From NCBI GenBank assembly GCA_001769805.1, contig MEPO01000011.1, positions 41,623-105,622 on the forward strand: a stretch of DNA of 64,000 nt. The letters run 5' to 3'. This DNA comes from Bdellovibrionales bacterium GWA1_52_35. Lineage in GTDB: Bacteria > Bdellovibrionota > UBA1018. A program made the position numbers and the translations under genes. Position 1 is the first letter of the stretch. Every line of letters starts with the position of its first letter. Of the stretch, positions 34,897 through 50,891 are shown piece after piece. The notes beneath the pieces are model-generated. The model did no database searches. It was not told where the DNA came from and saw only the letters and a list, made by a program, of their open reading frames with translations.

Positions 34897-35453
34897 AAAT
34901 CACACCTCTCAAGCCAGTCGGTCTGGCCCTGATTGAACTCTCCCTTTATGGTGACGAGCGCGGATTTTTTGTTGAAAGATTTCATGAAGAGCGCTTCCAT
35001 GATGCCGGACTTTTCGCCCATTTTGTTCAGGACAATCACTCCCGCTCCGCCCCGGGTGTTTTGCGCGGTTTGCATTATCAGGTAAGCCCCCCACAAGGGA
35101 AGCTGGTCGGTGTGGTCCGCGGCGCGATCTGGGATGTTGTGGTGGATATTCGCCCTGAATCACCCACCTTCGGACAGCACTACGGAGTCGAACTCAGTGA
35201 TATGAATGGCCGACTCCTCTGGATTCCTGCCGGTTTTGCCCATGGTTTTTGCGTTCTCGGCGAGAGCCCCGCTGATGTCCTTTATAAAACAGACGGAATT
35301 TATAACGCAAGTACGGAGGGCGGGATTACCTGGAACGATCCCGAGCTGAAACTCCCATGGCCAATTGCCAACCCCATCGTTTCCAAACGAGATCAGGAGC
35401 AACCCTCATTTTCTGAGTACCGCAAGAAGGCGCCGAAATGGGCGCTCCTTTGA
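34893..35453 (+). CDS. rfbC: dTDP-4-dehydrorhamnose 3,5-epimerase
   Basis: Start at the ATG overlapping the rfbD stop. ..DERGFF.E.F.. and ..RGLHYQ.. are present. ..LWIPAGFAHGF.. is the RmlC signature. Confidence 0.9.
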   Translation: MKITPLKPVGLALIELSLYGDERGFFVERFHEERFHDAGLFAHFVQDNHSRSAPGVLRGLHYQVSPPQGKLVGVVRGAIWDVVVDIRPESPTFGQHYGVELSDMNGRLLWIPAGFAHGFCVLGESPADVLYKTDGIYNASTEGGITWNDPELKLPWPIANPIVSKRDQEQPSFSEYRKKAPKWALL

Positions 35454-36808
35454 TCCGGCTTCTTAAGTCGAACCGACCTTTTTTTGCTCTGCTGCTCGGG
35501 ATTACCGTTTTGATCGCGCTCCGGAATCTGCCGGTTTTTCACCAGATCAGCTTCTGGGCGGAAGATGCGGACGAGTTCTTTATTGGTTCTCTGAATCTGG
35601 GGCTGAAAAGTCTGATTACTCCGATTTACGGATATCACTTTCTGCTAGGCCGCACCCTTGCTTACATAATCAGCTTGCTCCCGCTTGCTTGGGCGCCACT
35701 CCTGTATGCAGTGATTGCAATGTTTTTGAACGCATTAGTCCTCAGCTATTTTTCCCGGGAAGGTTTTGCCTGGATTATCGAATCACAGAGGGCGCGAATC
35801 CTCGTTTGTATTTTGCTCGTTTTTGCTCCGGGCTCTCCTGAGGTCTTCCTGAATCTGGTGAACTTGAGTACCCCCTTGGGATTTTTCGCGCTTTTACTGC
35901 TCCTGGAAAAGCCATTCCGTCCAAGCGCTTTGAAGATCGCGTTTTTTGGCCTGCTGGTCCTTTCCTCGGGCCAGGTTTTCCTTTTCACACCTCTGGTTGC
36001 GTATCTCTGGTTCGTCACCCGCCAAAGCCGTTATCTGTATCTACTTGGAATCATTCTGCCGGTCACGGCCATCAATTTCCTGGGTAATCACTCGATCGGG
36101 CAGAAGACAGGACTCCTCAATTACGACCACGTCTTCAGCGCCCCAAAAATAATCTGGGAACAGGGCTTTATTCGGTTTTTCTTTGCGCCTTTGCTGGGTT
36201 CCGGACTGACCGAGCACCTGATGCAAATGCCTGGACTCCTGTTCTGGCCGCTATCGATTGGAATAACCAGCCTGTTTTTCCATACTCTCGTGAAGAAGAC
36301 GATAGCCAGCCGGGAGCAGATGATCACGCTGACATTGGCTTACCTCTGTTGTGCAGCCAGCTTCGGCGTCATCGCTATTACCCGGAGCTATGCCTTCGGT
36401 CAGGTCTCCCGCGAATCGGGCTATGTTGGGTGGGATGGACGCTATGCTTTCCTGACCGGTGCACTCGCACTGGTAATCTGGTCCTCGCTCTTCAGCAAGG
36501 TCGTGAAGAGTCCATTCAGAATGGGCTCTAAAAAAAACCGCTTGGTCCAGGCGGCCTTGCTTCTGATTGTGTTTCATCACTTGGGGCACTTCAATACACG
36601 GAACATGCGCCCCGATCCCGAGTTTGACTTCAAAGCGGCGCAGCTCGAAGCCGCTATTTATACGGTCAAGCAGCGCTCGACAACTTTGACTTTGACGACA
36701 GATCCGTTCCTGGTTGGACCAGAATACTACCACCACAGTCAAATGACGGTCTTGGTCCATCCCGATGGGTCCATTACGTCCACAGGCAAGAATGATCCGC
36801 CGCGTTAA
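35438..36808 (+). CDS. Polytopic membrane protein (456 aa; candidate GT-C-fold glycosyltransferase)
   Basis: About 11 hydrophobic segments, a soluble tail of about 90 aa and a periplasmic-loop WAEDADEFF near TM1. Confidence 0.45.
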   Translation: MGAPLIRLLKSNRPFFALLLGITVLIALRNLPVFHQISFWAEDADEFFIGSLNLGLKSLITPIYGYHFLLGRTLAYIISLLPLAWAPLLYAVIAMFLNALVLSYFSREGFAWIIESQRARILVCILLVFAPGSPEVFLNLVNLSTPLGFFALLLLLEKPFRPSALKIAFFGLLVLSSGQVFLFTPLVAYLWFVTRQSRYLYLLGIILPVTAINFLGNHSIGQKTGLLNYDHVFSAPKIIWEQGFIRFFFAPLLGSGLTEHLMQMPGLLFWPLSIGITSLFFHTLVKKTIASREQMITLTLAYLCCAASFGVIAITRSYAFGQVSRESGYVGWDGRYAFLTGALALVIWSSLFSKVVKSPFRMGSKKNRLVQAALLLIVFHHLGHFNTRNMRPDPEFDFKAAQLEAAIYTVKQRSTTLTLTTDPFLVGPEYYHHSQMTVLVHPDGSITSTGKNDPPR

Positions 36809-37152
<344 letters not shown>

Positions 37153-38403
37153 ATGTATCAGGAAATAAATAAATGCAGAATCTGCGGCAACACGGAACTC
37201 ATTCCGGTTCTGAATCTCGGAAGTCAGGCTTTGACTGGCATTTTCCCGGAAACCAAAGAGCGCTCGGTAGGAACAATGCCGCTTGTGCTCGTCAAATGCC
37301 TGGACAAGGATCACGCGGACCGCTGCGGGCTTTTGCAGCTAAAGCATACCGGTAATCTCACTGAACTTTACGGCAAGGATTACGGCTACCGTTCTGGTCT
37401 GAACCGCTCGATGGTTCTCCACCTGCATGGTAAGGTGAAAAAAATCCTCGCTCAGACCCGCCTTACGAAAGACGATCTGGTCATCGACATTGGAAGCAAT
37501 GACAGCTCCCTTCTTCAGGCTTATCCGAACGAAGGCCTTAACCTCGTCGGGATTGATCCTACAGGCGTGAAGTTCAGCAAATATTATCCCGCTCATATCC
37601 AGCTTATCCCGGATTTTTTCTCAGCCGCCAAGGTTCAGGAAACTTTTGGAAACCGTAAAGCCAAAATCGTCACTTCCTGCTCGATGTTCTATGACCTGGA
37701 AGATCCGATGGCCTTCATGCAGCAAGTTCACGACGTCCTGGACGAACAGGGAGTTTGGGTCTTTGAACAGAGCTACATGCCGACGATGCTCGAACGCAAC
37801 TCGTACGATACCGTCTGCCATGAGCACCTCGAATATTACGCTCTGAAGCAGATTCAGTGGATGGCAGAGCGCGTGGGGCTCAAAATCCTGGATGTCGAAT
37901 TCAACGACATCAATGGCGGCAGTTTCTCGGTTACGGTTGCGAAGAAGGGTTCGGCCACCCAGCCCAACTCCGCCCGGATCAAGCAGATCCTGCAGCAGGA
38001 GCACGAGCTGGGCCTGCACACCCTGAAGCCTTACGAGGAATTCAAGACCCGCGCTTACAAACAACGTGATGAACTTCTGGCTTTTATCCGAAAGGCCAGT
38101 GCCGAGGGTAAAACTGTCTTCGGCTACGGCGCCTCAACCAAAGGTAATGTGCTTCTTCAGTTCTGCGGTCTTTCGGAAAAGGACCTTCCCTGTATCGCTG
38201 AAGTGAATCCGGATAAGTTCGGCTGTTTCACGCCGGGCACCCTGATTCCCATCACCTCCGAGCAGGAAGCCAAGAAAATGAATCCCGATTACTTTCTGGT
38301 CCTGCCGTGGCATTTCCGGGACAATATTCTGGCTCGTGAACAGGAATACCGCAACAATGGCGGTCAGTTTCTTTTCCCCCTGCCGCACGTCGAAGCCGTT
38401 TAA
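37153..38403 (+). CDS. NDP-hexose C-methyltransferase (TylCIII/EvaC-like: Zn-ribbon, SAM-MTase and C-terminal C-methyltransferase domain)
   Basis: Has an N-terminal CRICGN..(x)..C..C zinc-ribbon, a central VIDIGSNDSSLL..LVGIDP SAM fold and a C-terminal ..VFGYGASTKGNVLLQF... (Methyltransf_14-like). 416 aa. Confidence 0.75.
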   Translation: MYQEINKCRICGNTELIPVLNLGSQALTGIFPETKERSVGTMPLVLVKCLDKDHADRCGLLQLKHTGNLTELYGKDYGYRSGLNRSMVLHLHGKVKKILAQTRLTKDDLVIDIGSNDSSLLQAYPNEGLNLVGIDPTGVKFSKYYPAHIQLIPDFFSAAKVQETFGNRKAKIVTSCSMFYDLEDPMAFMQQVHDVLDEQGVWVFEQSYMPTMLERNSYDTVCHEHLEYYALKQIQWMAERVGLKILDVEFNDINGGSFSVTVAKKGSATQPNSARIKQILQQEHELGLHTLKPYEEFKTRAYKQRDELLAFIRKASAEGKTVFGYGASTKGNVLLQFCGLSEKDLPCIAEVNPDKFGCFTPGTLIPITSEQEAKKMNPDYFLVLPWHFRDNILAREQEYRNNGGQFLFPLPHVEAV

Positions 38404-38406
38404 GTC

Positions 38407-39369
38407 ATGAGAACCGCCCTGATTACCGGCAGCCAAGGACAGGACGGCAAGCTTCTGTTCGAGCTTCTCAAGAGCAAGGGTTATGGCGTGCTTGGCCTCG
38501 ACCTGAATAAAACGGAGGCACATGGAGTTCAAATTCCACTACCTGCCTCAACTGATCTGACCATCAGCAAAGAGGTAATTGCCCTGGTTGCACAATTCCA
38601 ACCGGATGAAATCTACCACCTTGCAGCGGTACATCATTCTTCGGAGGAAAACTCCTCCGAGAATGCCTCGGCATTCCGCCGGGCTTATGAGGTCAATTTT
38701 TTTGCGCTGATTAACCTGCTTGAGGGTGTGCGCCTGCATTCACCGCAGACCCATGTTTTCTACGCTGCGTCTTCACATATTTTTGGCCATTCTGAAGCGG
38801 ATATCCAGGACGAATCCACCCCGCTCAATCCTGACTCGCCTTACGCATTTTCAAAAGTCGATGGACTTCAGGCCAGTCGACTTTACCGCAGCAAGTATGG
38901 AATTCATGCCTCAGTCGGTATTTTGTACAATCACGAATCAGAATATCGGGCTTCAAAATTTCTATCCAAAAAAATCACCTCCGCCGTCGTTAGAATTAAT
39001 AACGGAAGCAACGAGAAATTGACGCTAGGCGATCTTTCGGCGGTGATCGACTGGGGCTACGCCCGGGACTATGTGGAGGCAATGCACAGAATCAACACAC
39101 TCACGGAATCACCGGAGTCCGATGATTTCATTGTTGCTAGCGGCACGCGGCACACCGTCGAGGACTTTGTACAAACGGCCTTTCGTCATGCCGGTCTGGA
39201 TTGGCGCTCGCATGTTGTTGAAAACCCTTCTTTGCTTGGCCGCCGTAATCCGCTCCGAATTGGCAACCCTGTAAAATTAATGAAGCGGACAGGCTGGACG
39301 CCTTCCGTATCCTTCGAGCAGATGATCAAATTGCTGTTGATATCCGAAGGACTTCCAATTGATAAATGA
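38407..39369 (+). CDS. Gmd/Rmd-family short-chain dehydrogenase (GDP-4-keto-6-deoxyhexose reductase-like)
   Basis: ALITGSQGQDGKLLFELLKSKGY is Gmd-like. SPYAFSKVDG..LY is the YxxxK region. YNHESEYRASKF is present and no dehydratase-type insertion is seen. 320 aa. Confidence 0.75.
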   Translation: MRTALITGSQGQDGKLLFELLKSKGYGVLGLDLNKTEAHGVQIPLPASTDLTISKEVIALVAQFQPDEIYHLAAVHHSSEENSSENASAFRRAYEVNFFALINLLEGVRLHSPQTHVFYAASSHIFGHSEADIQDESTPLNPDSPYAFSKVDGLQASRLYRSKYGIHASVGILYNHESEYRASKFLSKKITSAVVRINNGSNEKLTLGDLSAVIDWGYARDYVEAMHRINTLTESPESDDFIVASGTRHTVEDFVQTAFRHAGLDWRSHVVENPSLLGRRNPLRIGNPVKLMKRTGWTPSVSFEQMIKLLLISEGLPIDK

Positions 39370-39382
39370 AACTGAGCGCCCT

Positions 39383-40855
39383 ATGAAAAATCCACTCGTT
39401 TTTGTTCCCACTTACAATGAAAGTGAAAATGTTCGCACCCTTTGCGCGCAATTACTGGATTTGAACACAGACCTCGATATTCTTTTCATGGATGACAACT
39501 CTCCGGATGGTACCGGCAAGGTGCTTGAGGAACTCTCAAGTCAGCACCCGAATGTCAAAGTCGTCCATCGCCCGGGCAAGCTTGGTGTCGGAAGCGCGCA
39601 TTTCGACGGTATTCAATGGGCTTATGCGAACGGCTATCAGCGACTCATCACCATGGATTGTGACTTCACCCACCCCCCTCATTACATCCTGGACATCATC
39701 AAAGTTGAGAATGCCGATATCGTAGTGGGCTCCCGTTATTTGAAAGAAAAAAGCCTCCGTGGCTGGAACCTGCTCCGGAAGACCTTGACGAGAACCGGGC
39801 ACTTTTTGACCAAGACCCTTCTGGGTATGGACTATGATGCGACCGGCGGCTTCAGGATGTACAGGCTGGACCGGCTGCCACGGGGCTTGTTTTCTCTGGT
39901 CGGTTCCAAAGGGTATTCGTTTTTTTTCGAGAGCCTTTATGTGATTCACTTCAACAAATTCCTGATCTGCGAAATTCCGATTTCGCTCCCGCCCCGTACT
40001 TACGGCCACTCCAAAATGACCCTTGCCGAAGTTAAACGGAGTGTGAAACTTCTGTTTTCCATTTTCATGAACCAGCTTCTTTATCCCGAGCGCTTTCTGC
40101 TTGCAGGCGGTGTGGACGTCGCCGTCAACCCGGCCTTGAATGACCCCCAGGGTTGGGAAGAGTACTGGAAGGCGCAAAAAATTTCGACCGGTGGAATTGT
40201 GTATGATTCAATCGCCGCATTCTACCGGAAATTTATTATCAAACGCACGCTGAACTATTTTGTTCGCAAGTATTTTACCAAAGGCTCAAGGATTCTTCAT
40301 GCCGGGTGCGGCAGTGGCCAGGTCGACACAGATATTTCAAAGCACGTGTCGATTACCGGCATGGATATCTCGGTCAACGCCCTCCGTTATTACGGAAAAC
40401 TGAATCAGAACTGTGCAACCCTGCACGGAAGCATTTTCAGCATCCCGCTACCGGATCGCTCCGTGGATGGTATTTACAATCTTGGGGTCATGGAGCATTT
40501 CACGGAGAAGGAAATTTCCGAGATTTTTTCGGAATTCAAACGGGTACTGAAAGACGATGGTCGCATGATCATCTTCTGGCCTCCTGAATTCGGAGCCAGC
40601 GTGATTTTTCTCAAAGGCGTCAAATGGGGGCTTGAAAATATTTTTGGCAAAAAAGGTGTTAAAATTCATCCCGACGAGATCACCCGGGTACAATCCAAAG
40701 AACACGTGGCCCGCCTTTTTCAAAAAGGTGGATTCATGGTGACAAAATACTATTTTGGTCCGATGGACTTCTTTACGTACTCCGTGATCATTGCCGACAA
40801 GCACTCGCTGTCGACTGCAAAAGAGCCGCTGGTTGCACTCGGCCCTACGGTTTAA
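39383..40855 (+). CDS. Fusion protein: polyprenyl-phosphate mannose synthase (DPM1/Ppm1-like GT2) N-domain plus class I SAM methyltransferase C-domain
   Basis: The N-domain has VFVPTYNESENV, FMDDNSPDGT and ITMDCDFTHPP (the DPM1 signature; compare MDADLSHHP). The C-domain has ILHAGCGSGQVD...GMDIS (motif I) and ..LKDDGRMIIF... No TM segments. Confidence 0.75.
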   Translation: MKNPLVFVPTYNESENVRTLCAQLLDLNTDLDILFMDDNSPDGTGKVLEELSSQHPNVKVVHRPGKLGVGSAHFDGIQWAYANGYQRLITMDCDFTHPPHYILDIIKVENADIVVGSRYLKEKSLRGWNLLRKTLTRTGHFLTKTLLGMDYDATGGFRMYRLDRLPRGLFSLVGSKGYSFFFESLYVIHFNKFLICEIPISLPPRTYGHSKMTLAEVKRSVKLLFSIFMNQLLYPERFLLAGGVDVAVNPALNDPQGWEEYWKAQKISTGGIVYDSIAAFYRKFIIKRTLNYFVRKYFTKGSRILHAGCGSGQVDTDISKHVSITGMDISVNALRYYGKLNQNCATLHGSIFSIPLPDRSVDGIYNLGVMEHFTEKEISEIFSEFKRVLKDDGRMIIFWPPEFGASVIFLKGVKWGLENIFGKKGVKIHPDEITRVQSKEHVARLFQKGGFMVTKYYFGPMDFFTYSVIIADKHSLSTAKEPLVALGPTV

Positions 40856-42323
40856 GATTAATTCCAGAATAACAGCTGTAAGCCGGACGCCCCGGGCCCG
40901 CTGCAAAGTCGCGTCTTTTCTCAAATGATTCAGGATGGCTCCGCTCTGAATCTTTGGCCCAGCAACCCGCCTGCTTTTTGCCTGTAGGATCGAAGTACGG
41001 AACCGGCTTCCAGTCCGACCAAAGTGAATTCAATGCAAGTCGGTTCTTGGAATAGAATTTAAGCGGCCAATAGCTTGCGTAACCATCAGAGTAGGCCACA
41101 CAAGTGCCAGACGGACACTCATCCATTAGCCAGGCAGCCGCAGGCTTGAGTGGGTCTTCTTGCTTTGCGAATTGGACAAGAGGCAAAGCCAATCGCACAA
41201 GAAAAAACAAAAACAGACCTCCAAGGACCACCCAAGCGCGAAGTCCTTCGATTGTGAAGCGTTGCCGTGCCCGGAAAAGCAAATCGCTCTGCAGGAAAAT
41301 CCATCCGGGAAGTAAAGATAGAAAATATCGCTCAGTTCCAAGATCCATCAAGGTCCGTCCACGGTAGCACATAAACAGTAGAAACAACGTTCCGGCGCCA
41401 GTTGCGAGTCCGTGGTGCAAGAAATGCCGGTCGAGGCGATTTGTGCGTCCTTTCACGAGTACGCTGAAATGCCAGACAAAAGCGCCGATCAGCAGGATTA
41501 AGAACCCCACGAGAAGAAACACAGGCGCTGCATCCTTTGTAAGCATGAACCTGAAAGGTTGATGACCGCTGAGGATGTTCAGAAAACTTCGTACCTCGAT
41601 ATACCAATGCACTCCCGGAGTCGCCGATATGGGTAAGGGGAAATTCCGCATAACCGGCCAAGCGAGACCAATCAGAAGCGCCAGCCCGAGCGCAAAGTGG
41701 TGAAAGCGTCGCCGGGCACCGGCAACAAGATGTCTCAGTACTGGAAGGAATATGGCTCCAAGCCCAACGACTGCTGTGATATGTGCCTCAATTGCAAGTC
41801 CAGCAAGTAATGCGATCCTTAGCCACCGGACTTCCGAGGTTCGGTGAACCCGGAGAGCTTCCGCAAAGAGCACCAAGAACAATCCCAGCATAAAGGATTG
41901 TGGAAAAGCCACGCGCGAAAAAACAAGAACCATTGGACTGATCGACAGAACAAAGGCAAAACTGCTTTTACGTTCGGGAAACTGCTGCTCAATTTCACGG
42001 TAGAGAACCCAAGCCCCCCAGGTGACGGCAATCAGCGGCACAGCCCTGAAGAGCCATGGGCTGGGATTCATGCCCAGGATCGAATGAAATATTGTAAAAA
42101 TAGAGCCCAGAATCCAAAAATCCAAAGGACCTTCGTAGGGAACCAAGGGGTTCAGAGCCGGCCATTGGCCGTGCGTGATCTTGCCAAGCTCTTCCACGAT
42201 CAGCTGATACAGGGTTTCGTCAGCATTCAGGCTCATAATATTAAGAGTGAGCACCTGAAACACAAGTACGACTACCGGCGCGAAGAGCGCCCAGCGCCAA
42301 GGATCCATTTTCAACTTCTTCAT
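40845..42323 (-). CDS. Polytopic membrane protein (492 aa; candidate GT-C-fold glycosyltransferase)
   Basis: At least 11 hydrophobic segments and a soluble C-terminal domain of about 110 aa. The first periplasmic loop carries ..SLNADETLY... Confidence 0.45.
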   Translation of the reverse strand: MKKLKMDPWRWALFAPVVVLVFQVLTLNIMSLNADETLYQLIVEELGKITHGQWPALNPLVPYEGPLDFWILGSIFTIFHSILGMNPSPWLFRAVPLIAVTWGAWVLYREIEQQFPERKSSFAFVLSISPMVLVFSRVAFPQSFMLGLFLVLFAEALRVHRTSEVRWLRIALLAGLAIEAHITAVVGLGAIFLPVLRHLVAGARRRFHHFALGLALLIGLAWPVMRNFPLPISATPGVHWYIEVRSFLNILSGHQPFRFMLTKDAAPVFLLVGFLILLIGAFVWHFSVLVKGRTNRLDRHFLHHGLATGAGTLFLLFMCYRGRTLMDLGTERYFLSLLPGWIFLQSDLLFRARQRFTIEGLRAWVVLGGLFLFFLVRLALPLVQFAKQEDPLKPAAAWLMDECPSGTCVAYSDGYASYWPLKFYSKNRLALNSLWSDWKPVPYFDPTGKKQAGCWAKDSERSHPESFEKRRDFAAGPGRPAYSCYSGINLKP

Positions 42324-42395: not shown

Positions 42396-44300
42396 TTGAG
42401 AACACGTGCAGTAGCTTTTGTATTCCAGATGAAACCCAAGAACCTCTCTCCTTCTCGCGAATTTTTCGTCTTCCTCTCAGGAGTCGTGCTGATTCTGGCC
42501 TACTGGATTTTGGTCAAACCCTTGAATCCGGGACCCGGGTACTTTGAGGACTTCTGTATCGAAATGAGTCGACGGGCCATGTCCGATTCAATCGAGCGCT
42601 TCGGGAAACCCACATTTGTTACAGACCTCTTCATGGCACCGTTCGGGATGCCGGTTCCCTTTTTCTCCTGGTCCATTGAGCGCGACTGGATGGGTGCGTG
42701 GTTTTGGAAATGGAATAAGTTCTTTCCTTTTATTTGGGCTTACTTCCTCGCCTCCCTGTTTCTCACGTATGCAGCGCTCGGCTATATTTTCAAGAAAATG
42801 AAACTGAGTGCCAGCTGGGCTTGGGCGATCGCAGCGCTGATTTGTGTCTTCAATATTCCGCGGCACTTCAAAATTTGGTACCACATCGAATATCTGGCGC
42901 AACATTGGCTGGTGATTTCCATTTTCCTCGACGCCTGGATCTGGGCCAAATGGACTCGCGAACGCAAATGGTCCTGGATTCTGGAACTCTGGCGGGCTTT
43001 CCTGATCCTGGCGGTCTTGGGTACGCCGGGCTACTTTTGGGCCATGTCCGCTCTCGTCTGGATGATCTTGCGTCTGAGCATGCTCCTTTCACTCCGAAAA
43101 CCTCAGGGAATGTCACTGCAGATCGAAGGCTCCTGGAGAGCGGCGATTCTTCCTTCGGTGCTTTGCCTGCTTTGGCTGTCATTTGAGCTGCGCTGGTTTA
43201 TTCCTCTCATCACCGAAATGCGGAAGCTCGGAACGGTTTCGCAGGGGCTCGGTTGGTGGGCAAACATCGGGTATGTATTCAGACCTCTTTGGCTTGATAT
43301 TTTAGCGGGCCCTCTGGCTTTCAGTCATATCCTGGCACCTCTGGACAGGCCCGAGACTGTTGTAACCGCCGGATGGTTCTATTGGGTTCCTGCCGTCACC
43401 GCCTTGGTTTTGCTTCGAAAAAAAGCGGGTGGTTCCGGATTAAAGACAGTTTTTCCTTTCGTCCTGCTCTTGGTTTTGACCATCGCCTACTTTGCATCCG
43501 AGCCGATCTTCAAGCAAGTGCGCTGGCTGATTCACTGGCCCATGCAGCATCTTGTGCCATTCATGTCGTTCTTTCGCGCGACGAGTCGCTGGGGAATTGT
43601 TCTGCCCTATTTTCTTGGTGCGATCATCATTCTGAGCTGGCCGGAGCTTTCTGCCTGGGCGAAGGCGCTGTATAAAAGACGGCCTAAAATGGTCAACGCT
43701 GTCGTTGCCGTATTCGCCTTGTCTTCAATTGCGGAAGCGGCATGGCTATTCCACCCCGTGATGATGCAACCGCCTCTGGCTTCTTCCATGGTATCGCTTC
43801 TTGATCAGGTTCGCGCGAAACCGGGTACCACCGTGCTTGACATGCCTTTCTGTGTCGCGGGCGGAAACGGCGTCTGCACCGCTGAGCAATGTCCGAATTA
43901 CCCCCTGTCCACCGTTTCTGGATGCCTGAGCAGCTGGCACGACAAGAAAATATACGGGCTTTATCAGGCGCGTCTTGCCCCCGAACAATGTCAATATTAC
44001 GGAAAAGCACCATTCACTCACTGGTTCTCCGCCTGGAAAGAACAGCGCTGCCTGAGCGATGACGAGTGGCAGGAGTTCTGTACCTATCTCGAGGGACAGC
44101 CCGACATTTCTTCCATCCTGATTTATCCCGATATCTGGAAAGCTGCGGGCCACCCCGCCTGCCGAGCTGAAATTGAACAGCGCTTGGGCGCACCTTTGGC
44201 CGAGTCAGTATTTCTCGCCCGTCCCACGCGAGGCGGTGCGGGTTCTGATCCTTCCAGAATCTGGCTATTCCCCGGGAAATGCTCGACTCAGGCGCGTTGA
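42396..44300 (+). CDS. Polytopic membrane protein with C-terminal Cys-rich extracytoplasmic domain (paralogue A)
   Basis: 634 aa. It has about 11 TM segments and a C-terminal domain of about 170 aa with 8 Cys (PFCVAGGNGVCTAEQCPNYP...SGCLSSWH..QCQYY...QRCL...EFCTYL...HPAC). It aligns along its whole length with 50881-52788. Confidence 0.55.
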   Translation: MRTRAVAFVFQMKPKNLSPSREFFVFLSGVVLILAYWILVKPLNPGPGYFEDFCIEMSRRAMSDSIERFGKPTFVTDLFMAPFGMPVPFFSWSIERDWMGAWFWKWNKFFPFIWAYFLASLFLTYAALGYIFKKMKLSASWAWAIAALICVFNIPRHFKIWYHIEYLAQHWLVISIFLDAWIWAKWTRERKWSWILELWRAFLILAVLGTPGYFWAMSALVWMILRLSMLLSLRKPQGMSLQIEGSWRAAILPSVLCLLWLSFELRWFIPLITEMRKLGTVSQGLGWWANIGYVFRPLWLDILAGPLAFSHILAPLDRPETVVTAGWFYWVPAVTALVLLRKKAGGSGLKTVFPFVLLLVLTIAYFASEPIFKQVRWLIHWPMQHLVPFMSFFRATSRWGIVLPYFLGAIIILSWPELSAWAKALYKRRPKMVNAVVAVFALSSIAEAAWLFHPVMMQPPLASSMVSLLDQVRAKPGTTVLDMPFCVAGGNGVCTAEQCPNYPLSTVSGCLSSWHDKKIYGLYQARLAPEQCQYYGKAPFTHWFSAWKEQRCLSDDEWQEFCTYLEGQPDISSILIYPDIWKAAGHPACRAEIEQRLGAPLAESVFLARPTRGGAGSDPSRIWLFPGKCSTQAR

Positions 44301-44308
44301 AGTCTTGC

Positions 44309-45937
44309 TCAGTTCTTGACGAGCAAGACGACGTCTTTTCCAGAAAGCCGGTCCACGGCAATGGCGCTGCGGGTACAATTTTCTGAGACTTCCTGCCAAC
44401 TCGGCCCGTTCACGGAAGGCTCAGAGGTCATTTTTTCGATCATGCCCCGGACCTGCTCGGGATTCATTTCCCACCTGGAAATCGTTGGCGTGAGTAAAAG
44501 ATAATTGATCGACTTCCACATGGAATGAGTCGGTGGTGGAAATTTTTCGCTCAAGATCGTTTCTTCAAAGCCGGTCTCTCCAAAAGGCGTCCGTAGTACC
44601 CCAATCAGCGCGGGCGAGACAATCCCTTTGGCATTTGAACTGGGTAAGCATTTCAGAAGTGCCTGCGTATGGGATCGAAGATCTTGGGCAGCCGAAGAGG
44701 GAACGGTAAAAAACGGCGCACCACTCCCGAGAGCCAGAACCGAGAATAACAACCAGCTCCGCTTCCCCGGCATGAGTGCGACCGCAAGCCAAAAGCCGCC
44801 GAGCAAAGATGCGGAGTAATAATTCACAAGTGTTGCAGGCTGCCCGCCTAAAGTGGCCAGGACTGCTGCAATCGGAAGCACCCAGAACCAAAAGCGGGCT
44901 TTAAGTGAAACCCAGGGAGCAAATATCAAAAGCGAAAGCCAAGGTCGTGAAACAAGAAAAAATGCGATTTTTCGCAAGACAGAAGTAATATCCAGATCAA
45001 CGGCCCGGAGATACGGCATTGCCGAAGGAAGCTGCACAGCCATTCCCGAAAATTCCTGAACTCCCCATTCTCCTGTACTGAAGCGACGGATGGATAGAAA
45101 CAAAACCGTACTGATAGCTGATCCCAGCAAGATCGCCGCCACTGATGAAAAGAGTTGTGTCTTCGCGCGTTTTTGCCAGACACTTGCTGCAAACCAGAGA
45201 AGGACCGGGAATAAAATAAAAGGCGCATCCACCTTGGTCCCAAAGCCAAGGAGAATCCCGGCCATCCACGCCCAGTGGCGTAGCTTCCCATCGGCGACTC
45301 CCAATCCCCAACAAGTCAGCAAAACAGAAAATGGATAAACGACCTCAGGGTGAACATCGTAACCCAGGATTCGCCCCACCTGCGTGGACGACAGGAAACA
45401 GAACGCAACAATCCAGGCACCCAGCGGTCCCCACAAGGGTTTGGCCAAATTGGCAAGAACCACAGCAGCAAACGCGAGTGCAAGCGGTGCCAGAAGCAGT
45501 GCTGTTAATGTGGACCCGAAAAGCCACGTCAGCGGCAGAAATCCATAAAGGCTCCAGAAAGGATGAACGGCTCCATGCTGCATGAGCCCCGTCGTTTGTG
45601 GAGCAAAGTGAGTGAGAAATGGCACTCCTTTAACGAGGCTCCTGAGCATGTCCTCAAAAAGCCAGAAATCCTGCGCGTTGAGTGTAAGGGAGTACCATTG
45701 CAAAAATTTCTGAAAAGCTCCTATTGCGGAAAATGCCAGGGCGAGAATCCAGACGCTCGCATGGAAGTGGCTTTGAAGGGCTTTTGAAGCCCGCTCTTCC
45801 CAAGCAGTCCGGAGCGAACCGAGGCGGGTACGCAAGGCTTCGGGAGCGAAACGACTGGCCAGAACCACGCAAGCAAGAGCAATAGCCCCGGCCCACAAGA
45901 TCCACCGCAAACGAAGTTCGAGCTCAACGAGATTCAT
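44309..45937 (-). CDS. Polytopic membrane protein (about 542 aa; candidate GT-C-fold glycosyltransferase)
   Basis: Start taken at the internal ATG (MNLVELELRL...) to avoid overlap with the divergent gene. At least 12 hydrophobic segments and a soluble C-terminal region of about 110 aa. Confidence 0.45.
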   Translation of the reverse strand: MNLVELELRLRWILWAGAIALACVVLASRFAPEALRTRLGSLRTAWEERASKALQSHFHASVWILALAFSAIGAFQKFLQWYSLTLNAQDFWLFEDMLRSLVKGVPFLTHFAPQTTGLMQHGAVHPFWSLYGFLPLTWLFGSTLTALLLAPLALAFAAVVLANLAKPLWGPLGAWIVAFCFLSSTQVGRILGYDVHPEVVYPFSVLLTCWGLGVADGKLRHWAWMAGILLGFGTKVDAPFILFPVLLWFAASVWQKRAKTQLFSSVAAILLGSAISTVLFLSIRRFSTGEWGVQEFSGMAVQLPSAMPYLRAVDLDITSVLRKIAFFLVSRPWLSLLIFAPWVSLKARFWFWVLPIAAVLATLGGQPATLVNYYSASLLGGFWLAVALMPGKRSWLLFSVLALGSGAPFFTVPSSAAQDLRSHTQALLKCLPSSNAKGIVSPALIGVLRTPFGETGFEETILSEKFPPPTHSMWKSINYLLLTPTISRWEMNPEQVRGMIEKMTSEPSVNGPSWQEVSENCTRSAIAVDRLSGKDVVLLVKN

Positions 45938-46028
45938 AGGTATTATCGGCGATCTAACCACAACGAAGCATCTTTTAAAATGAAATTGACTAGACGCGGC
46001 GACCACTGCAACAGTAGCGAGAACGGCT

Positions 46029-47681
46029 ATGAAGAAATATTCAGCTCTCCTATTTGACGTGGTGATCGCGGTCCTGCTCGGGCTGTCTCTGAGTGGAGGC
46101 ATCGAGTGGGACGGTAGAACGATCCTGCGCCATGCGGCCGATCCGCGTCGCGCAGCCCTGATTCTGCTGGGCCTCGGGTATTTCTTTGTTCAGGAATTTA
46201 AAGTGCGAAGCATCTTCCTTCGTCTGGCCTCGCTTCTGATTCACAAACTCTCGACGATTCCTCATTGGCGTTGGGGATTTTTTGGCGCGGCATTTCTGCT
46301 CGCGGAAACGCTGTCGATCCTGCAGGTCCTGGCGCTCCGGGTTCGCCTTTATGACGTTGGGATTTTTCACCAGATTCTCTGGAGTCTGACTGAAGGTCTT
46401 GGCTTCCACAGTACGATCAGTGGGGCTGGCAATTTCTTGCTGGATCACTCAGCGGTATCGGTCGCACTCCTCGCGCCCTTTGCCTGGTTATCCGGGAATT
46501 CACCGCTATTTCTGCCCATCTTGCAACCCGTACTGCTATTCGGCGGGGCCGCTGCGTGGATCAGACTTGCCGAAAGATTGCCCGCTGTTTCGATCGAAAT
46601 TCGTGGTCGAATCGCAGCATATACGTTACTTGTGGTCGTCAGCTTTCAAAGCATCTGGGGAAATATTGAGTGGGGTTTCCACGAAAATGCCATCGCCTTC
46701 TTTTCACTCTCCTGGGCTTTCACGTGGATGTACCTGGGGAAGAACACCTGGGTCACGGGTCTGTTGCTGCTGATTGCCGCCGGTTCTAAAGAGATCTTGC
46801 TGGTCAGTGTCGGTTTTGGATTTTTCTTCTGGGCCTCTCTGAGCTGGAAAGACCGGGCCCGGGCCTGGCCGGGCATGCTTTCTAAGGTCGTAACGGGGAT
46901 TCTTTTAATCGCGCTCTTTGTGTTCTTCGAGAAACTTCCGCACCCGGCGGATAAAAATTATTTTCTCCGTTATTATTCATATCTGGGAACGGGACTCACT
47001 GATTTCTTCAAAACCCTTCTGCTGAATCCCTTCAGTGTCGTGCAAAACGTCGGAGCAGTGGAGCTGGCGAACTATTTTAAGACCGTTTTTCTTCCCTGGC
47101 TTGGAATCCCCCTGCTGCTCTCGGTTTGGCCGCGCGCACGGCCCGTCCGAAAATGGGGAGGACTCCTGCTTGTTATCCTTCCCTCTTTTGCAAGTGCCGC
47201 AATCGCGACTTACCCACCGCTTCGAGGCATAAATTATCATTATGTTCTGGAGCTCTGGCCTGCTTTGGCGGTCAGCACTTTAATTGGAATTTCATTTTTC
47301 AGAGAAAGTGCCATTCGGCGTATTCTGCAGATCTGGCTACTCCTTGCCCTTCTGGGGCTTGACTTCGATCCGATTTCCTCGATTCGGGAGAACTTCTCAG
47401 GTGCGATCCGTCAGAGTGACGCCCGCCAGGCCATGAGCAACATTCCAAACGAGAGCACGGTCATGGCAGACGAATTGGCCGGAACCTGGGTGGCGGGACG
47501 CAGGATCGTCACCCGATGGCCGGATCTCCATTTCCTGGAAAATGGCTGTCCCGATTGGCTCGTGCTTGAACGATCACAGGATAAAGACAACCAGAAGTCG
47601 CAAATATTCACTTGCCCGAACAATCGCAAACCGGTGCTTCAGTGGGAGCACGGCGATTGGGCCGCGTACCGGCTGCTCTGA
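46029..47681 (+). CDS. Polytopic membrane protein (550 aa; candidate GT-C-fold glycosyltransferase)
   Basis: About 12 hydrophobic segments and a soluble C-terminal domain of about 100 aa. Confidence 0.45.
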   Translation: MKKYSALLFDVVIAVLLGLSLSGGIEWDGRTILRHAADPRRAALILLGLGYFFVQEFKVRSIFLRLASLLIHKLSTIPHWRWGFFGAAFLLAETLSILQVLALRVRLYDVGIFHQILWSLTEGLGFHSTISGAGNFLLDHSAVSVALLAPFAWLSGNSPLFLPILQPVLLFGGAAAWIRLAERLPAVSIEIRGRIAAYTLLVVVSFQSIWGNIEWGFHENAIAFFSLSWAFTWMYLGKNTWVTGLLLLIAAGSKEILLVSVGFGFFFWASLSWKDRARAWPGMLSKVVTGILLIALFVFFEKLPHPADKNYFLRYYSYLGTGLTDFFKTLLLNPFSVVQNVGAVELANYFKTVFLPWLGIPLLLSVWPRARPVRKWGGLLLVILPSFASAAIATYPPLRGINYHYVLELWPALAVSTLIGISFFRESAIRRILQIWLLLALLGLDFDPISSIRENFSGAIRQSDARQAMSNIPNESTVMADELAGTWVAGRRIVTRWPDLHFLENGCPDWLVLERSQDKDNQKSQIFTCPNNRKPVLQWEHGDWAAYRLL

Positions 47682-47684
47682 ATT

Positions 47685-48701
47685 TTACCAATAATGAGAT
47701 TGATGCTGGCGGTAATAGTCATGAGTTCGCTCAATTCCATCTGCCAGCTGTATCTGGGGATTCCAGGCCAGAACTTTCTTGAGCTTGGTAATATCTGAAA
47801 CATAGTCGCCGGTCTCAACATTGATGTAGGCCTCGGGCCAGGGCACGAATTGCACCTGGCCTTTGCGGACGACTTTCACGATGGTTTCGACCATCTCCTT
47901 GAAGTGGGTCCCGATTCCGCTACCGAGATTGAAGACCTCGCCAAAGCACCCCTCGGTGACTGCGCTTTGAATCATGGCATCGGCAAGATCGTCAACATAG
48001 ATATAATCTCGCACCTGCTCACCTGTCCCAAAGACTTTCAAGGTATGACCTTCCATCGCCTGACGAATAAACCAGTTGATCATCGAATATTTGTTATGTC
48101 GCATCTGCGAGCGCGGTCCATAGGGATTGGCGATCCGGAAGAGGACACAGCGGATGCCATGAATCTGGTGGTAAAAGAGGTAACTGTTTTCGGCCGCTGT
48201 CTTGTTCAGGGCATACGGCGTGCGGGGGCGGAGTGGATGCTTTTCGTCGACCGGATTGTATTCGATCTTGCCGAACTGAAGTCTCGAGCCCGAATGGATG
48301 ATGACCGCCTCCGGGCTGTGGCGACGCACATTTTCCAGGACATTCAGATGCCCGATATAATTGATATCGGCATCGAGCGCGGGATTCTGCATACTATCGT
48401 TATGGCTGACTTGCGCGGCAAGATTGAAGATGATGTCCTTGCCTTGCACCAGGGCCTTCATGGCTTCGGTGTCACGAATATCACAAACGCTGACGGTCAC
48501 CTGCTCACGAATTCCTTCGATATTAAAAAGATTCGCACCGTAAACAGCACTGTTCACGTCCGCGAGCGTGACGTTCGCCCCACCCTGGACCAGCTTCCTG
48601 GCAATAGTGGTGCCGATCATTCCGAGCCCGCCGGTGATCAGAACGTTCTTTGACCGGAATTTATCGCCAATCGGATGCATCACGGGCTTTTCCCTGAACA
48701 A
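47685..48701 (-). CDS. NAD-dependent epimerase/dehydratase (extended SDR)
   Basis: Rossmann VLITGGLGMIGTTIARKL and catalytic ..TPYALNKTAAE..Y (YxxxK) are present. 338 aa; the first ATG may be internal at MHPIG. Confidence 0.75.
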   Translation of the reverse strand: MFREKPVMHPIGDKFRSKNVLITGGLGMIGTTIARKLVQGGANVTLADVNSAVYGANLFNIEGIREQVTVSVCDIRDTEAMKALVQGKDIIFNLAAQVSHNDSMQNPALDADINYIGHLNVLENVRRHSPEAVIIHSGSRLQFGKIEYNPVDEKHPLRPRTPYALNKTAAENSYLFYHQIHGIRCVLFRIANPYGPRSQMRHNKYSMINWFIRQAMEGHTLKVFGTGEQVRDYIYVDDLADAMIQSAVTEGCFGEVFNLGSGIGTHFKEMVETIVKVVRKGQVQFVPWPEAYINVETGDYVSDITKLKKVLAWNPQIQLADGIERTHDYYRQHQSHYW

Positions 48702-49674
48702 CGTTCAGCTTGGTTTTCACGATATACTTGGGCCGCTGTTTCACTTCATCGTAAATTCGAGCAATGTACTCACCGATGATGCCGATAGCGACAAGCTGCA
48801 GCCCCGAAAGAAAAAGGACTGCAACGGTGAGATAAGCCCAGCCCGGTACATCCGGAATATGTCCGGTCAATTTGCCGTAAACAATCCGGATACTTTCTTC
48901 GATACTGAGAATTGCAACCAGTACCCCGATAAAAGTCACGTACTTCAGCGGTTTGTATGAAAAAGAAAAAATTCCGTTGAAAGCGAGTTCGAAATATTTA
49001 TTGAGACTATACCCGGATTCGTCAGCAAAACGCGCGCAGCGCTCGTACTCGACTCCAGTCTGTTTGAACCCGGACCAGGCCCGCATTCCGCGCAGGTACC
49101 GGTTGTTCTCCGGCATGGAGACCAGGATTTCGCGAACACGAGCGGACATCACGCAAAAATCACCGGCATCGTTCGGAATCTTGGTATCCATCAACAATCC
49201 CGAAATCCGGTAAAAAAGGCGGTAAAGGGCGCGGTGAACCAAAGAACGCTTCCGCTTTCGGCGCACGCCATAGACCACATCAAACCCTTCCCGCGCTTTT
49301 GCTACAAACTGGGGAAGAATTTCTGGCGGGTCTTCCAGGTCATCGTCAATGATGGCAACCCATTTTCCGCGAGCGTGATTCAGGCCTGCCGTCAAGGCGG
49401 CCTGGTGACCAAAATTTCTGGAAAATTCGAGCACTTTCAGCCTGGAATCCTGAGCTGCGCGTGCGCTGATCACCTCGAAAGAAGCATCACGGCAGCCATC
49501 CAAAACGGCAATGATTTCAAAAGTTGAGAAGGCCGGCTCCAGAGCGGTAATCAGTCGCTTGTAGAGTTCCGGAAAAATATTTGCTGAATTATAGATCGGC
49601 ACAATGACCGAAAAGTCAGGCGAAATTTCGGAGTGGGAGGCACTGTTCGGCTGGAGTTCATCGGAAGTTGCCAT
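48661..49674 (-). CDS. GtrB/ArnC-like polyprenyl-phosphate hexose synthase (GT2 with C-terminal TM pair)
   Basis: Has FSVIVPIYNSANIF, LDGCRDAS and AIIDDDLEDPPEIL. Two C-terminal TM helices are present (FIGVLVAILSI, LQLVAIGIIGEYIA). Confidence 0.8.
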   Translation of the reverse strand: MATSDELQPNSASHSEISPDFSVIVPIYNSANIFPELYKRLITALEPAFSTFEIIAVLDGCRDASFEVISARAAQDSRLKVLEFSRNFGHQAALTAGLNHARGKWVAIIDDDLEDPPEILPQFVAKAREGFDVVYGVRRKRKRSLVHRALYRLFYRISGLLMDTKIPNDAGDFCVMSARVREILVSMPENNRYLRGMRAWSGFKQTGVEYERCARFADESGYSLNKYFELAFNGIFSFSYKPLKYVTFIGVLVAILSIEESIRIVYGKLTGHIPDVPGWAYLTVAVLFLSGLQLVAIGIIGEYIARIYDEVKQRPKYIVKTKLNVVQGKARDASDWR

Positions 49675-49766: not shown

Positions 49767-50891
49767 ATGACCAACCAGGTGACCGTGATATTTCTGCTTT
49801 ACAACGCCGAGGATACAGTCCGGGCGCTCGTTGATTCAGCCCTGGGCCAAAAGTCCGCTCCCGAGAGCCCTCCTGCAACAATACTCTTTGTCGATGATTG
49901 CTCGAAGGACCGGACTCTGACTGTGCTCAAAGCTTATTTAGAAGAGAAGGGCAACCCAAAACATATCCGGTGGATTTCCCATGAACAGAATTTCGGGCTC
50001 TCACGCACTCTAAATGAAACTTTTGAGGCGCTCGAAACCCCTTACGCGCTGACCTGCCATTGCGACTGCTTTTTCGGGCGGGAGGATTACGTTGCCCAAA
50101 TGGTAACCCTGATGGACGCCCATCCCGAAGCCGCCACCATAACCGGCCAGCCGCAGATTTCTCCCACTGGCCGAATTCCTTTCGCCGAGAAGGTAAGCTT
50201 GACCGAAAACCTGATGGACATATTTCAAAAGCCGATTCCTCCCGGTGTCAGTCCCGAACAGTGGGTGATCCCCGTGGGCTTTGCCGAAGGGCGTTGTGAT
50301 ATTTTCCGTAAATCAGCACTCCAAGCAGTTGGCTATTATGATACGACGGTACGTCTTTCTGGCGAAGATCAACTGATTGCAGCCCGCATGCGGCAAAAGG
50401 GGTTTGCAATTTATCAGGCCCCCGCAATGCCTTACACCCTTTCTGTCTCTGATTCCCAAAACAGCACCTGGAAGTTGCTCAAGCATCAGCACCTGCTGGC
50501 GCGAACATCTCCTTACGTCATGTTCAAGAATCGCGAGACCCTGCAAGGAATGGTCGGGGAGACCGCTGGAAATAATCGCAAAAAACGAACCCTGCTCCGG
50601 CTTCATCATCTTTTCAGTTCTGTCGTTTACTGCTGGCTTGCCCTGTTTATGATTCTGGGCCTGAGCCCGCAACACAGAGCTTTCTGGATTCCACTATTGC
50701 TGGTGATTGCAATCAAGGCCTGGCTTTTTGCTGATCATTGCCCGGCAACGCGGATGAAACCACTGGATCTGGCTGGATTTGCGCTCCTGCAGCCTCCTTT
50801 TGACTTGATTTATACCGTCGGATTCACCCAAGGACTCTACGCAACTGCTCTCTTGAAAATTTTCCCCGACCGAAAGCACACTATTCAGTAG
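49767..50891 (+). CDS. Membrane-anchored family 2 glycosyltransferase
   Basis: Has VTVIFLLYNAEDTV and FVDDCSKDRT. C-terminal hydrophobic segments are present (LFSSVVYCWLALFMILGL, IPLLLVIAIKAWLF). Confidence 0.7.
   Translation: MTNQVTVIFLLYNAEDTVRALVDSALGQKSAPESPPATILFVDDCSKDRTLTVLKAYLEEKGNPKHIRWISHEQNFGLSRTLNETFEALETPYALTCHCDCFFGREDYVAQMVTLMDAHPEAATITGQPQISPTGRIPFAEKVSLTENLMDIFQKPIPPGVSPEQWVIPVGFAEGRCDIFRKSALQAVGYYDTTVRLSGEDQLIAARMRQKGFAIYQAPAMPYTLSVSDSQNSTWKLLKHQHLLARTSPYVMFKNRETLQGMVGETAGNNRKKRTLLRLHHLFSSVVYCWLALFMILGLSPQHRAFWIPLLLVIAIKAWLFADHCPATRMKPLDLAGFALLQPPFDLIYTVGFTQGLYATALLKIFPDRKHTIQ

Follow-up and report, generated by a model that had tools for sequence, protein, structure and literature searches.

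A widespread bacterial fusion of a predicted polyprenyl-phosphate glycosyltransferase with a methyltransferase, and the lipid-linked sugar it may produce

A stretch of 64,000 nucleotides from Bdellovibrionales bacterium GWA1_52_35 (assembly GCA_001769805.1, contig MEPO01000011.1, positions 41,623 to 105,622; hereafter the window, whose own numbering we use throughout) contains at 39383-40855, on the forward strand, a gene whose product appears to unite a glycosyltransferase with a methyltransferase. An earlier reading of the letters alone (the sequence-only reading) took it for a Rosetta-stone fusion of a DPM1/Ppm1-type polyprenyl-phosphate mannose synthase with an S-adenosylmethionine (SAM) methyltransferase. 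The locus thus raises three questions: is this truly one gene, which sugar does it handle, and what does the methyltransferase modify? We report that the fusion defines a conserved family found across many bacterial phyla. With moderate confidence, we propose that it is a bifunctional peripheral enzyme whose glycosyltransferase family 2 (GT2) domain would load GDP-6-deoxy-3-C-methylhexose onto polyprenyl phosphate and whose methyltransferase domain would O-methylate that sugar.

One gene in many genomes

The gene encodes 490 residues from ATG in a single uninterrupted open reading frame (ORF), and the ORF reading of the window reveals neither a stop nor a frameshift inside it. Such a break between the halves had been named beforehand as the sign of two separate genes; none is present and the single-gene claim stands. 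Both halves exceed their Pfam cutoffs: Glycos_transf_2 matches residues 6-161 (E-value 3.4e-23, 82.8 bits for a cutoff of 23.3) and Methyltransf_11 matches residues 305-397 (E-value 2.1e-15, 57.5 bits for a cutoff of 21.2). Searches of the two halves with Pfam, PDB and Foldseek confirmed a polyisoprenyl-phosphate glycosyltransferase-like GT2 domain (39383-40117, residues 1 to about 245) followed by a class I SAM methyltransferase domain (40130-40810, residues about 250-476; Pfam Methyltransf_11/25/12/31). The latter had been placed at residues 300-490; its class was correct, but its borders move once the N-terminal helices are included. The motifs quoted in the sequence-only reading were located at residues 32-45 (DILFMDDNSPDGTG) and 88-99 (LITMDCDFTHPP) of the first half and at residues 305-315 (LHAGCGSGQVD) of the second. 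The AlphaFold2 (AF2) model of the protein has a pLDDT of 87.2 and a pTM of 0.80. As had been noted, there is no transmembrane (TM) helix in the fusion protein: the highest 19-residue Kyte-Doolittle window reaches 1.3 and lies in a beta-strand of the methyltransferase core.

Two alternative starts share the end of the gene at 40855, namely ATG at 39383 (490 residues) and TTG at 39359 (498 residues). The former, chosen by the gene callers, is without a clear Shine-Dalgarno sequence. The latter has an AGGA 7 nucleotides upstream and would overlap the preceding gene, encoding a short-chain dehydrogenase/reductase (SDR), by 11 nucleotides including its stop codon, an arrangement that would couple the translation of the two genes. 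The true start may lie eight codons before the ATG.

Among 5.8 billion proteins, a word-indexed search gave 2211 matches with E-values of at most 1e-5. The best 120 of these 2211 matches have 470-563 residues, are 55-82% identical to the query and all carry both domains, so the same two-domain architecture, which it had been proposed to seek in databases, is indeed found there. A scan of loci in one genome per GTDB species showed that the species-level genomes encoding a relative of the fusion number at least 173 and belong to more than 12 phyla. The carriers include Bdellovibrionota/Oligoflexia, Verrucomicrobiota, Planctomycetota, Acidobacteriota, Myxococcota, Gemmatimonadota, Omnitrophota, Elusimicrobiota, Chloroflexota, Bacteroidota, Gamma- and Betaproteobacteria (including a metagenome-assembled genome, MAG, of Coxiellaceae) and Desulfovibrionaceae, among others. 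For the analysis of genomic context we kept the 80 best of the 173 loci, nearly all of which cover query residues about 5-473. To assess residue conservation, we aligned the window protein and 79 orthologues taken from genomes; none of these 80 sequences has an internal stop. The spread over 173 species and the stop-free alignment indicate that the fusion is an old conserved orthologous family, and neither an assembly artefact nor the isolated event that a Rosetta-stone fusion would imply.

Could two neighbouring genes nevertheless have been joined wrongly during assembly or annotation? The rare split arrangements seen in other metagenomes (see below) might suggest so. However, the same fused ORF recurs in independent assemblies. 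Groundwater metagenomes and MAGs yielded 10 contigs that encode the identical protein, among them contigs of two NCBI MAG assemblies and one ENA assembly, and the best database matches, 120 out of 120, are full length. Together with the absence of internal stops in 80 out of 80 aligned sequences, this rules out a frameshift or misassembly, and we regard the probability of an artefact as negligible. In NCBI the protein is named 'hypothetical protein A2Z97_09960' from Bdellovibrionales bacterium GWB1_52_6. Public labels of other family members are "hypothetical protein", "glycosyltransferase" and, where assigned automatically, "dolichol-phosphate mannosyltransferase".

Searched exhaustively by phmmer against 1.84 billion representatives, the methyltransferase half (residues 240-476) delimits a family of 309 clusters at an E-value of at most 1e-10, and 100 at 1e-30. 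Its members are the fusions, along with stand-alone proteins of about 217-241 residues that appear to be complete. Four of the five stand-alone forms with retrievable context are split versions of the GT2/methyltransferase gene pair, and all split cases keep the order glycosyltransferase then methyltransferase. In two of them (L087/L088 and L092, on metagenome contigs), the GT2 gene ends at an in-frame stop in the linker and the methyltransferase gene follows. In the other two (L089 and L093), the genes are in different frames and overlap by 4 nucleotides, with a polytopic membrane ORF next downstream in L093. The fifth (L090, marine) is a methyltransferase without an adjoining GT2 gene. In L087 (about 1370-1385) and L088 the stop is a TGA, followed two codons later by an ATG that stands just ahead of the conserved QxWDxYW helix. 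Either a genuine gene split or a reassignment of TGA to glycine (code 25) in the host lineage might explain this interruption.

The two catalytic halves

The solved structure nearest to residues 6-214 is the Dol-P-Man synthase (DPMS) of Pyrococcus furiosus (5mlz, E-value 7e-20; hereafter PfDPMS), followed by GtrB and ArnC at about 1e-6 to 1e-5. The top Foldseek matches for the N-terminal half of the model are likewise DPMS, ArnC and GtrB. This is in line with the DPM1-type motifs pointed out earlier, both of which are present. We transferred the residue roles described for PfDPMS (PMC5526996) by means of a HMMER alignment, with the chain index minus 22. Across the 80 sequences, the invariant positions (PfDPMS residue first) include E12=E13, D39=D38 (guanine), R63=R63, G68=G68, the two aspartates of the DxD motif (D89=D92 and D91=D94), H94=H97 (contact to sugar O3), the acceptor-phosphate triad (R117=R118, R131=R132 and S135=T136, a change from Ser to Thr) and the A-loop residues R202=R205 and K208=K211. 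Two other positions of PfDPMS are replaced. Gln93, a metal ligand within the motif DADLQH, is Thr in 77 of the 80 sequences. At the position of Lys178, whose contacts in PfDPMS are with mannose O4/O6 and the phosphoester oxygen (PMC5526996), 56 sequences have Ser and 23 have Ala, a change in keeping with a 6-deoxy sugar. Taken together, the conserved residues make it very likely that this half is a DPMS-type polyprenyl-phosphate glycosyltransferase, and the changes at Gln93 and Lys178 indicate a sugar pocket unlike that of a mannose synthase. Among the NCBIfam polyprenyl-phosphate hexose synthases there is no equivalog-level match: PpgS scores 43 bits (cutoff 370), ArnC 28.5 bits (cutoff 529) and DPhHxTase_Halo 17.6 bits (cutoff 375).

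These results bear directly on the product proposed in the sequence-only reading, according to which a genuine DPM1/Ppm1-type mannose synthase has a methyltransferase that O-methylates its product or a downstream mannan, leading to a methyl-mannosyl-phosphoprenol. The nearest solved relative is indeed a Dol-P-Man synthase, the residues contacting guanine (D38, G68) and mannose O2/O3 (D92, H97) are conserved, JGI labels the homologues as dolichol-phosphate mannosyltransferase and there is a phosphomannomutase gene in the window. Yet the JGI label is an automatic KEGG Orthology (KO) assignment, the lysine that contacts mannose O4/O6 is lost along with Gln93, and even the best equivalog score is far below its cutoff. 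Moreover, the fusion has a conserved operonic link to a sugar 3-C-methyltransferase and a reductase derived from GDP-mannose 4,6-dehydratase (GMD), described in the next section. Hence, we consider a mannose synthase unlikely and the methyl-mannosyl product probably wrong. Given the conserved cassette, the two replacements and the equivalog scores, it seems fairly probable that the donor is a C-methyl-6-deoxyhexose derived from the cassette instead of mannose.

The acceptor side raises another possibility, which is that the GT2 domain acts in the manner of WsaE or WbdD, adding a terminal sugar to a growing lipid-linked glycan whose elongation is then ended by the methyl cap. Methyltransferase-GT2 fusions with such a logic do exist (WsaE), and the window is rich in O-antigen-type genes. 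This scenario nevertheless seems very improbable, since the acceptor-phosphate triad R118, R132 and T136 is invariant, the interface helices are retained, there is a single glycosyltransferase domain and no coiled-coil ruler in the AF2 model, and the conserved partner is a polytopic membrane protein, not an ABC transporter. The two interface helices of the model lie at residues 130-147 and 214-233. In PfDPMS, a truncation without the entire TM domain was still about 80% membrane-targeted and as active as the wild type (PMC5526996). By analogy, the retained helices could suffice to bring the fusion protein to the membrane without a partner protein. It had been suggested that the association would be either peripheral or through a GT-C partner: the genome does encode polytopic GT-C-like neighbours, but the retention of the helices argues against the need for such a partner.

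The landmarks of the methyltransferase half are motif I (LHAGCGSGQVD, residues 305-315), the beta2 residue Asp328, NLGVMEHF (366-373), FWPPEFG (398-404) and HPDE (429-432). Invariance across the 80 sequences extends to LHAGCGxGQVD, Asp328, NLGVMEHF, FWP, HPxE, W258, W262, Y281 and R282. A lack of SAM-binding residues had been looked for by alignment as a sign against the methyltransferase assignment, and these residues turned out to be intact and invariant. The conservation of the SAM site and of the other residues points to the sort of constraint that acts on active enzymes with a defined substrate, so this half is, in all likelihood, catalytically competent.

The substrate of this domain could in principle be something other than a sugar. 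It might be a SAM-binding regulatory or scaffold module that replaces the TM domain, or an enzyme that methylates a lipid or another metabolite. Its fold matches include prenyl and lipid C-methyltransferases (geranyl diphosphate, GPP, C-methyltransferase and TleD), and Pfam reports a marginal match to CMAS. However, the CMAS match spans only the generic Rossmann core (residues 298-397), and the invariance reaches far beyond the SAM pocket (NLGVMEHF, FWP, HPxE, W258 and W262), as is typical of a substrate-binding catalytic site. The stand-alone and split versions also argue against a purely structural role. We thus hold it highly improbable that this is not a sugar methyltransferase.

The sugar cassette, the membrane partners and a proposed pathway

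If the donor is not mannose, which sugar could it be? In the window, a co-directional block of genes ends with the fusion. The preceding genes encode an NDP-sugar 3-C-methyltransferase of the TylC3/TcaB9/KijD1 family (37153-38403, forward strand; Pfam Methyltransf_13, 23 and 14) and a GMD-derived SDR (38407-39369, forward strand; GDP_Man_Dehyd, E-value 2e-67; 1rpn, E-value 1e-57). The PDB matches of the former are the mycarose 3-C-methyltransferase 4rv9 (E-value 3e-60) and TcaB9 (E-value 4e-51). The latter is predicted to be an RMD-like GDP-4-keto-sugar 4-reductase. The dehydratase Glu of the SSE motif is absent in all 49 orthologues of this SDR (mostly SSH or SSL) and YxxxK is kept; the 15 neighbouring true GMD sequences that we aligned all have SSE. 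The missing catalytic Glu and the retained YxxxK mean that the protein is best read as a 4-ketoreductase. Its nearest PDB match is a short GMD, and we considered a 4,6-dehydratase activity but rejected it, given the lack of the Glu in all 49 orthologues.

The cassette is also recurrent in other genomes. The C-methyltransferase and the SDR are directly upstream of the fusion and on the same strand in 39 of the 64 loci with enough flanking sequence, and the C-methyltransferase is within 10 kb in 37 of the 45 fully flanked ones. The fusion of the Coxiellaceae MAG (L057) adjoins both genes. The block of Oligoflexus tunisiensis and of a Verrucomicrobiae MAG consists of GMD, C-methyltransferase, SDR, fusion, in some cases an extra methyltransferase, and a membrane protein. 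An intact GMD thus stands in these loci at the position where the window has a decayed pseudogene (36860 to about 37150, forward strand), made of the first about 40 residues, internal fragments and a frameshifted C-terminal tail. The 83-residue remnant was called identically in three assemblies. This looks like the decay of a redundant copy. An intact GMD is encoded at 16168-17172 (forward strand; GDP_Man_Dehyd E-value 2.8e-146, 488 bits; motifs SSSE and YGCAK), 20 kb upstream of the pseudogene and followed by a GMER-like SDR (17169-18137). Because the cassette's own GMD has decayed, this copy probably supplies GDP-4-keto-6-deoxymannose to the cassette.

The extra methyltransferase is a 302-residue Methyltransf_11/23 protein encoded directly after the fusion in L005 (11550-12458) and in about 12 other loci (for example L007, L016, L021, L028, L029, L067 and L086). 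With 19% identity, it is ruled out as a duplicate of the fused domain. Its presence suggests that the sugar carries more than one O-methyl group in some lineages.

Polytopic membrane proteins are the other recurrent neighbours. In 45 of 69 loci, an ORF with at least seven TM segments has its start no more than 3 kb downstream of the fusion. The largest family of such proteins has 27 members in 21 loci, usually starting 0-3 nucleotides past the stop of the fusion, and has an invariant WRDE in the first loop. Two of the 17 members tested match PMT_2 (best E-value 6.5e-6), which we take to be a GT-C family. In the window, a polytopic protein of 456 residues with at least seven TM segments and an invariant FWAEDADEFF in its first loop (M1; 35438-36808, forward strand) is encoded directly upstream of the cassette block. 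It is orthologous (E-value 8e-79) to a membrane protein encoded downstream of the fusion in three other loci, either directly after it (L008) or 0.2-0.5 kb further and behind the gene of the 302-residue methyltransferase (L007 and L009). M1 is therefore a candidate for a GT-C-like transferase acting on the acceptor side.

Past the fusion, the window encodes five large polytopic proteins. The first (M2; 40845-42323, reverse strand; 492 residues and six TM segments by a Kyte-Doolittle scan) has a weak NCBIfam match to Agl23 (E-value 0.004). Its gene is convergent with the fusion, whose last 11 nucleotides (40845-40855) overlap its 3' end; many other genomes instead have a downstream partner on the same strand as the fusion, beginning 0-3 nucleotides past its stop. 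M3, identified by its TM count (42396-44300, forward strand), is followed by two proteins with DUF2079 (44309-46102, reverse strand, and 46029-47681, forward strand; Pfam E-values of the pair 1.5e-11 and 1.6e-25), a domain for which we found nothing relevant in the literature as a glycosyltransferase. M3 and the protein encoded at 50881-52788 (reverse strand) are paralogues of 634/635 residues, with 55% identity over 622 residues. Neither has a Pfam match, and they have in common a Cys-rich C-terminal soluble domain (…MPFCVAGGNGVCT.EQCPNYP…). These two proteins are possibly GT-C-like transferases with different acceptors.

We propose the following pathway. GMD, here probably the copy at 16168-17172, would act on GDP-mannose to form GDP-4-keto-6-deoxymannose, the TylC3-type enzyme (37153-38403) would methylate C3 of this intermediate, and the Glu-less SDR (38407-39369) would reduce the 4-keto group to give GDP-6-deoxy-3-C-methylhexose. 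The GT2 domain, docked at the cytoplasmic face of the membrane by its two amphipathic interface helices, would then transfer the sugar to polyprenyl (undecaprenyl) phosphate. The fused methyltransferase would O-methylate this sugar at a hydroxyl, most likely once it is part of the fresh polyprenyl-phosphate sugar at the membrane interface. Finally, after being flipped, the methylated lipid-linked monosaccharide would serve the adjacent polytopic GT-C-like proteins in decorating an envelope glycan or protein. Within this scheme, it is the identity of the sugar, the substrate and timing of the methyltransferase, the flipping step and the final acceptor that we infer. That the methyltransferase acts on the cassette-derived sugar seems likely. 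That it does so on the lipid-linked form is plausible but somewhat doubtful, and it is more tentatively still that we suggest the polyprenyl-phosphate monosaccharide as its substrate, which would create a new class of donor, polyprenyl-phosphate-(O-methyl-6-deoxy-3-C-methylhexose). If true, this would be the first sugar methylation at the level of the lipid-carrier monosaccharide, in a module present in more than 12 bacterial phyla, and methylation might be a commitment signal for flipping or for recognition by diverse novel GT-C transferases.

The timing of methylation could be the reverse. The methyltransferase might O-methylate GDP-6-deoxy-3-C-methylhexose before transfer and the GT2 domain would then load the finished sugar, in which case the fusion would serve to channel the substrate from the former to the latter. 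NDP-sugar O-methyltransferases are known, the fold here is class I of the soluble type, without an obvious element for lipid binding, and the fusion directly follows the nucleotide-sugar genes within one co-directional operon. On the other hand, the glycosyltransferase comes first and the methyltransferase second even in the split forms, WsaE methylates its sugar after transfer, and natural-product pathways of C-methyl sugars usually place O-methylation after glycosyl transfer (EryG, NovP). None of these points is decisive. We find methylation before transfer rather unlikely, and the domain order together with the natural-product pathways leads us to favour methylation after it.

Several observations weigh against the pathway that we favour. 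The replaced Gln93 is a metal ligand in PfDPMS. The matches of the methyltransferase fold are generic: Foldseek returns 3l8d, 3sm3, RebM, AtmM, MitM and ChlM, with a probability of 1.0 to many small-molecule class I methyltransferases, and these comprise sugar O-methyltransferases (RebM, AtmM) and also N- and C-methyltransferases. NCBIfam does not place the domain in any functional subfamily, the best score being 36 bits for the DVU_1556 family (cutoff 155), so that the methyl acceptor is not readable from homology. Among the 45 fully flanked loci, eight have no C-methyltransferase within 10 kb and only 15 have a nearby GMD, which in the window's cassette is a pseudogene. An rmlBADC operon is directly upstream in the window, and a dTDP-sugar route is thus conceivable. 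As for the GT-C fold of the partners, neither M1 nor M2 has a Pfam match, the AF2 model of M1, built from only 3 sequences, is unusable (pLDDT 42.9, pTM 0.29), and a profile of the largest downstream family has no meaningful match among PDB sequences. Lastly, there is no recurrent small multi-TM ORF of the GtrA, MATE or SMR flippase type near the fusion in the 80 loci and the window, where the cluster at 31.9-54.5 kb leaves no room for a flippase gene.

Other parts of the window also relate to glycan synthesis. The region 47685-49674 (reverse strand) contains a second candidate for carrier loading, a GT2 protein of 337 residues with two predicted C-terminal TM segments and a GtrB/ArnC-like architecture, whose gene overlaps the end of an SDR epimerase/dehydratase gene. 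Next comes the gene for another GT2 protein, of 374 residues (49767-50891). The region may thus hold two lipid-carrier glycosylation systems. Positions 1-22100 comprise a separate Wzx/Wzy-type glycan cluster with a DegT aminotransferase, four GT2 and one GT1 glycosyltransferases, two Wzy_C proteins, a Wzx-like flippase, a GT4 phosphoglycosyl transferase and three stand-alone methyltransferases. With a GC content of 0.42-0.48 it falls below the remaining sequence of the window (mostly 0.50-0.56), which suggests that it was laterally acquired. Between these clusters, a gene at 22584-23162 (forward strand) encodes a bacterial SET-domain protein of 192 residues (Pfam SET, E-value 1e-9), just upstream of a large histidine-kinase-like protein (23018-25429).

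Relation to known systems

We found no paper describing or characterising a DPMS-type GT2-methyltransferase fusion in the literature searched, nor any description there of methylation at the level of the polyprenyl-phosphate monosaccharide. If our model holds, the family would represent a widespread and unstudied module for envelope decoration in Bdellovibrionota, Verrucomicrobiota, Planctomycetota, Acidobacteriota, Myxococcota and others. It would provide a branched and methylated 6-deoxyhexose as a new lipid-linked sugar donor, and a new layout of carrier-level tailoring in which the tailoring enzyme is fused to the carrier-loading one. It would also point to several un-annotated families of polytopic transferases that use this donor, give testable functions to thousands of entries now called "hypothetical protein" or "glycosyltransferase", correct the automatic label "dolichol-phosphate mannosyltransferase" and supply new parts for glycoengineering. 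No principle is overturned by the existence of the fusion family.

One of the closest known systems, WsaE from the S-layer glycan pathway of Geobacillus stearothermophilus, is a methyltransferase-GT2 fusion that methylates the sugar just added (PMC2943079). In both proteins a SAM methyltransferase is covalently fused to a GT2 domain, and in both, as we propose for the fusion, it would modify the sugar handled by the same polypeptide. However, the methyltransferase of WsaE is N-terminal, there are two rhamnosyltransferase domains, and the protein acts on a growing glycan, terminating the chain for export by an ABC transporter. Unlike WsaE and WbdD, the fusion has one DPMS-type domain with an acceptor site built for polyprenyl phosphate.

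The chemistry predicted for the cassette resembles that proposed in silico for GDP-virenose in Coxiella burnetii, which involves GMD, the TylCIII-like CBU_0691 and a reductase (PMC3539893). In both cases GDP-mannose would be converted to the 4-keto-6-deoxy sugar, methylated at C3 and reduced at C4. Virenose presumably reaches the O-antigen by way of cytoplasmic glycosyltransferases, whereas our model involves a lipid-carrier/methyltransferase fusion, of which that paper gives no description (PMC3539893).

With the DPMS enzymes (5mlz, yeast Dpm1, human DPM1 and the D2 domain of Ppm1), the fusion has in common the GT-A/GT2 fold, the DxD motif, the nucleotide-binding Asp and Gly, the acceptor-phosphate Arg/Arg/Ser(Thr) triad, the Arg and Lys of the A-loop and the two interface helices. 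Human DPM1 and Ppm1-D2 are likewise without a TM helix. The identity between PfDPMS and the GT2 half is only 23-25% in the Foldseek alignments. The fusion family differs from these enzymes by the replacements of Gln93 by Thr and of Lys178 by Ser or Ala, by an operon context that suggests a 6-deoxy-3-C-methylhexose and not mannose, and by a C-terminal methyltransferase in place of TM helices, DPM2/3 partners or an Lnt domain. In particular, and as stated in the sequence-only reading, it is distinct from the mycobacterial Lnt-Ppm1, whose N-acyltransferase domain (CN-hydrolase and TM) is absent here, Pfam recognising only the GT2-type and methyltransferase domains.

Finally, the proposed function recalls the three-component systems, which consist of a polyisoprenyl-phosphate glycosyltransferase, a flippase and a GT-C enzyme, and for which tailoring of the sugar on the carrier lipid is described in the form of the DprE1/E2 and ORF13 epimerases (PMC11127046). 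GtrB, ArnC, CsbB/GtlA and PpgS are GT2 enzymes that charge polyprenyl phosphate with one sugar at the cytoplasmic face, and polytopic GT-C enzymes encoded nearby, putative in our case, use the lipid-linked sugar outside the cytoplasm. These GT2 enzymes have their own C-terminal TM helices and no fused modifying domain, and the fusion differs from the three-component systems in having no linked gene for a GtrA, MATE or SMR flippase. The ArnD deformylase is a further case of sugar modification on the lipid carrier. The logic of carrier loading is thus already known from DPMS, GtrB and ArnC, and what is new is the variant with a fused methyltransferase, which is both conserved and widespread.

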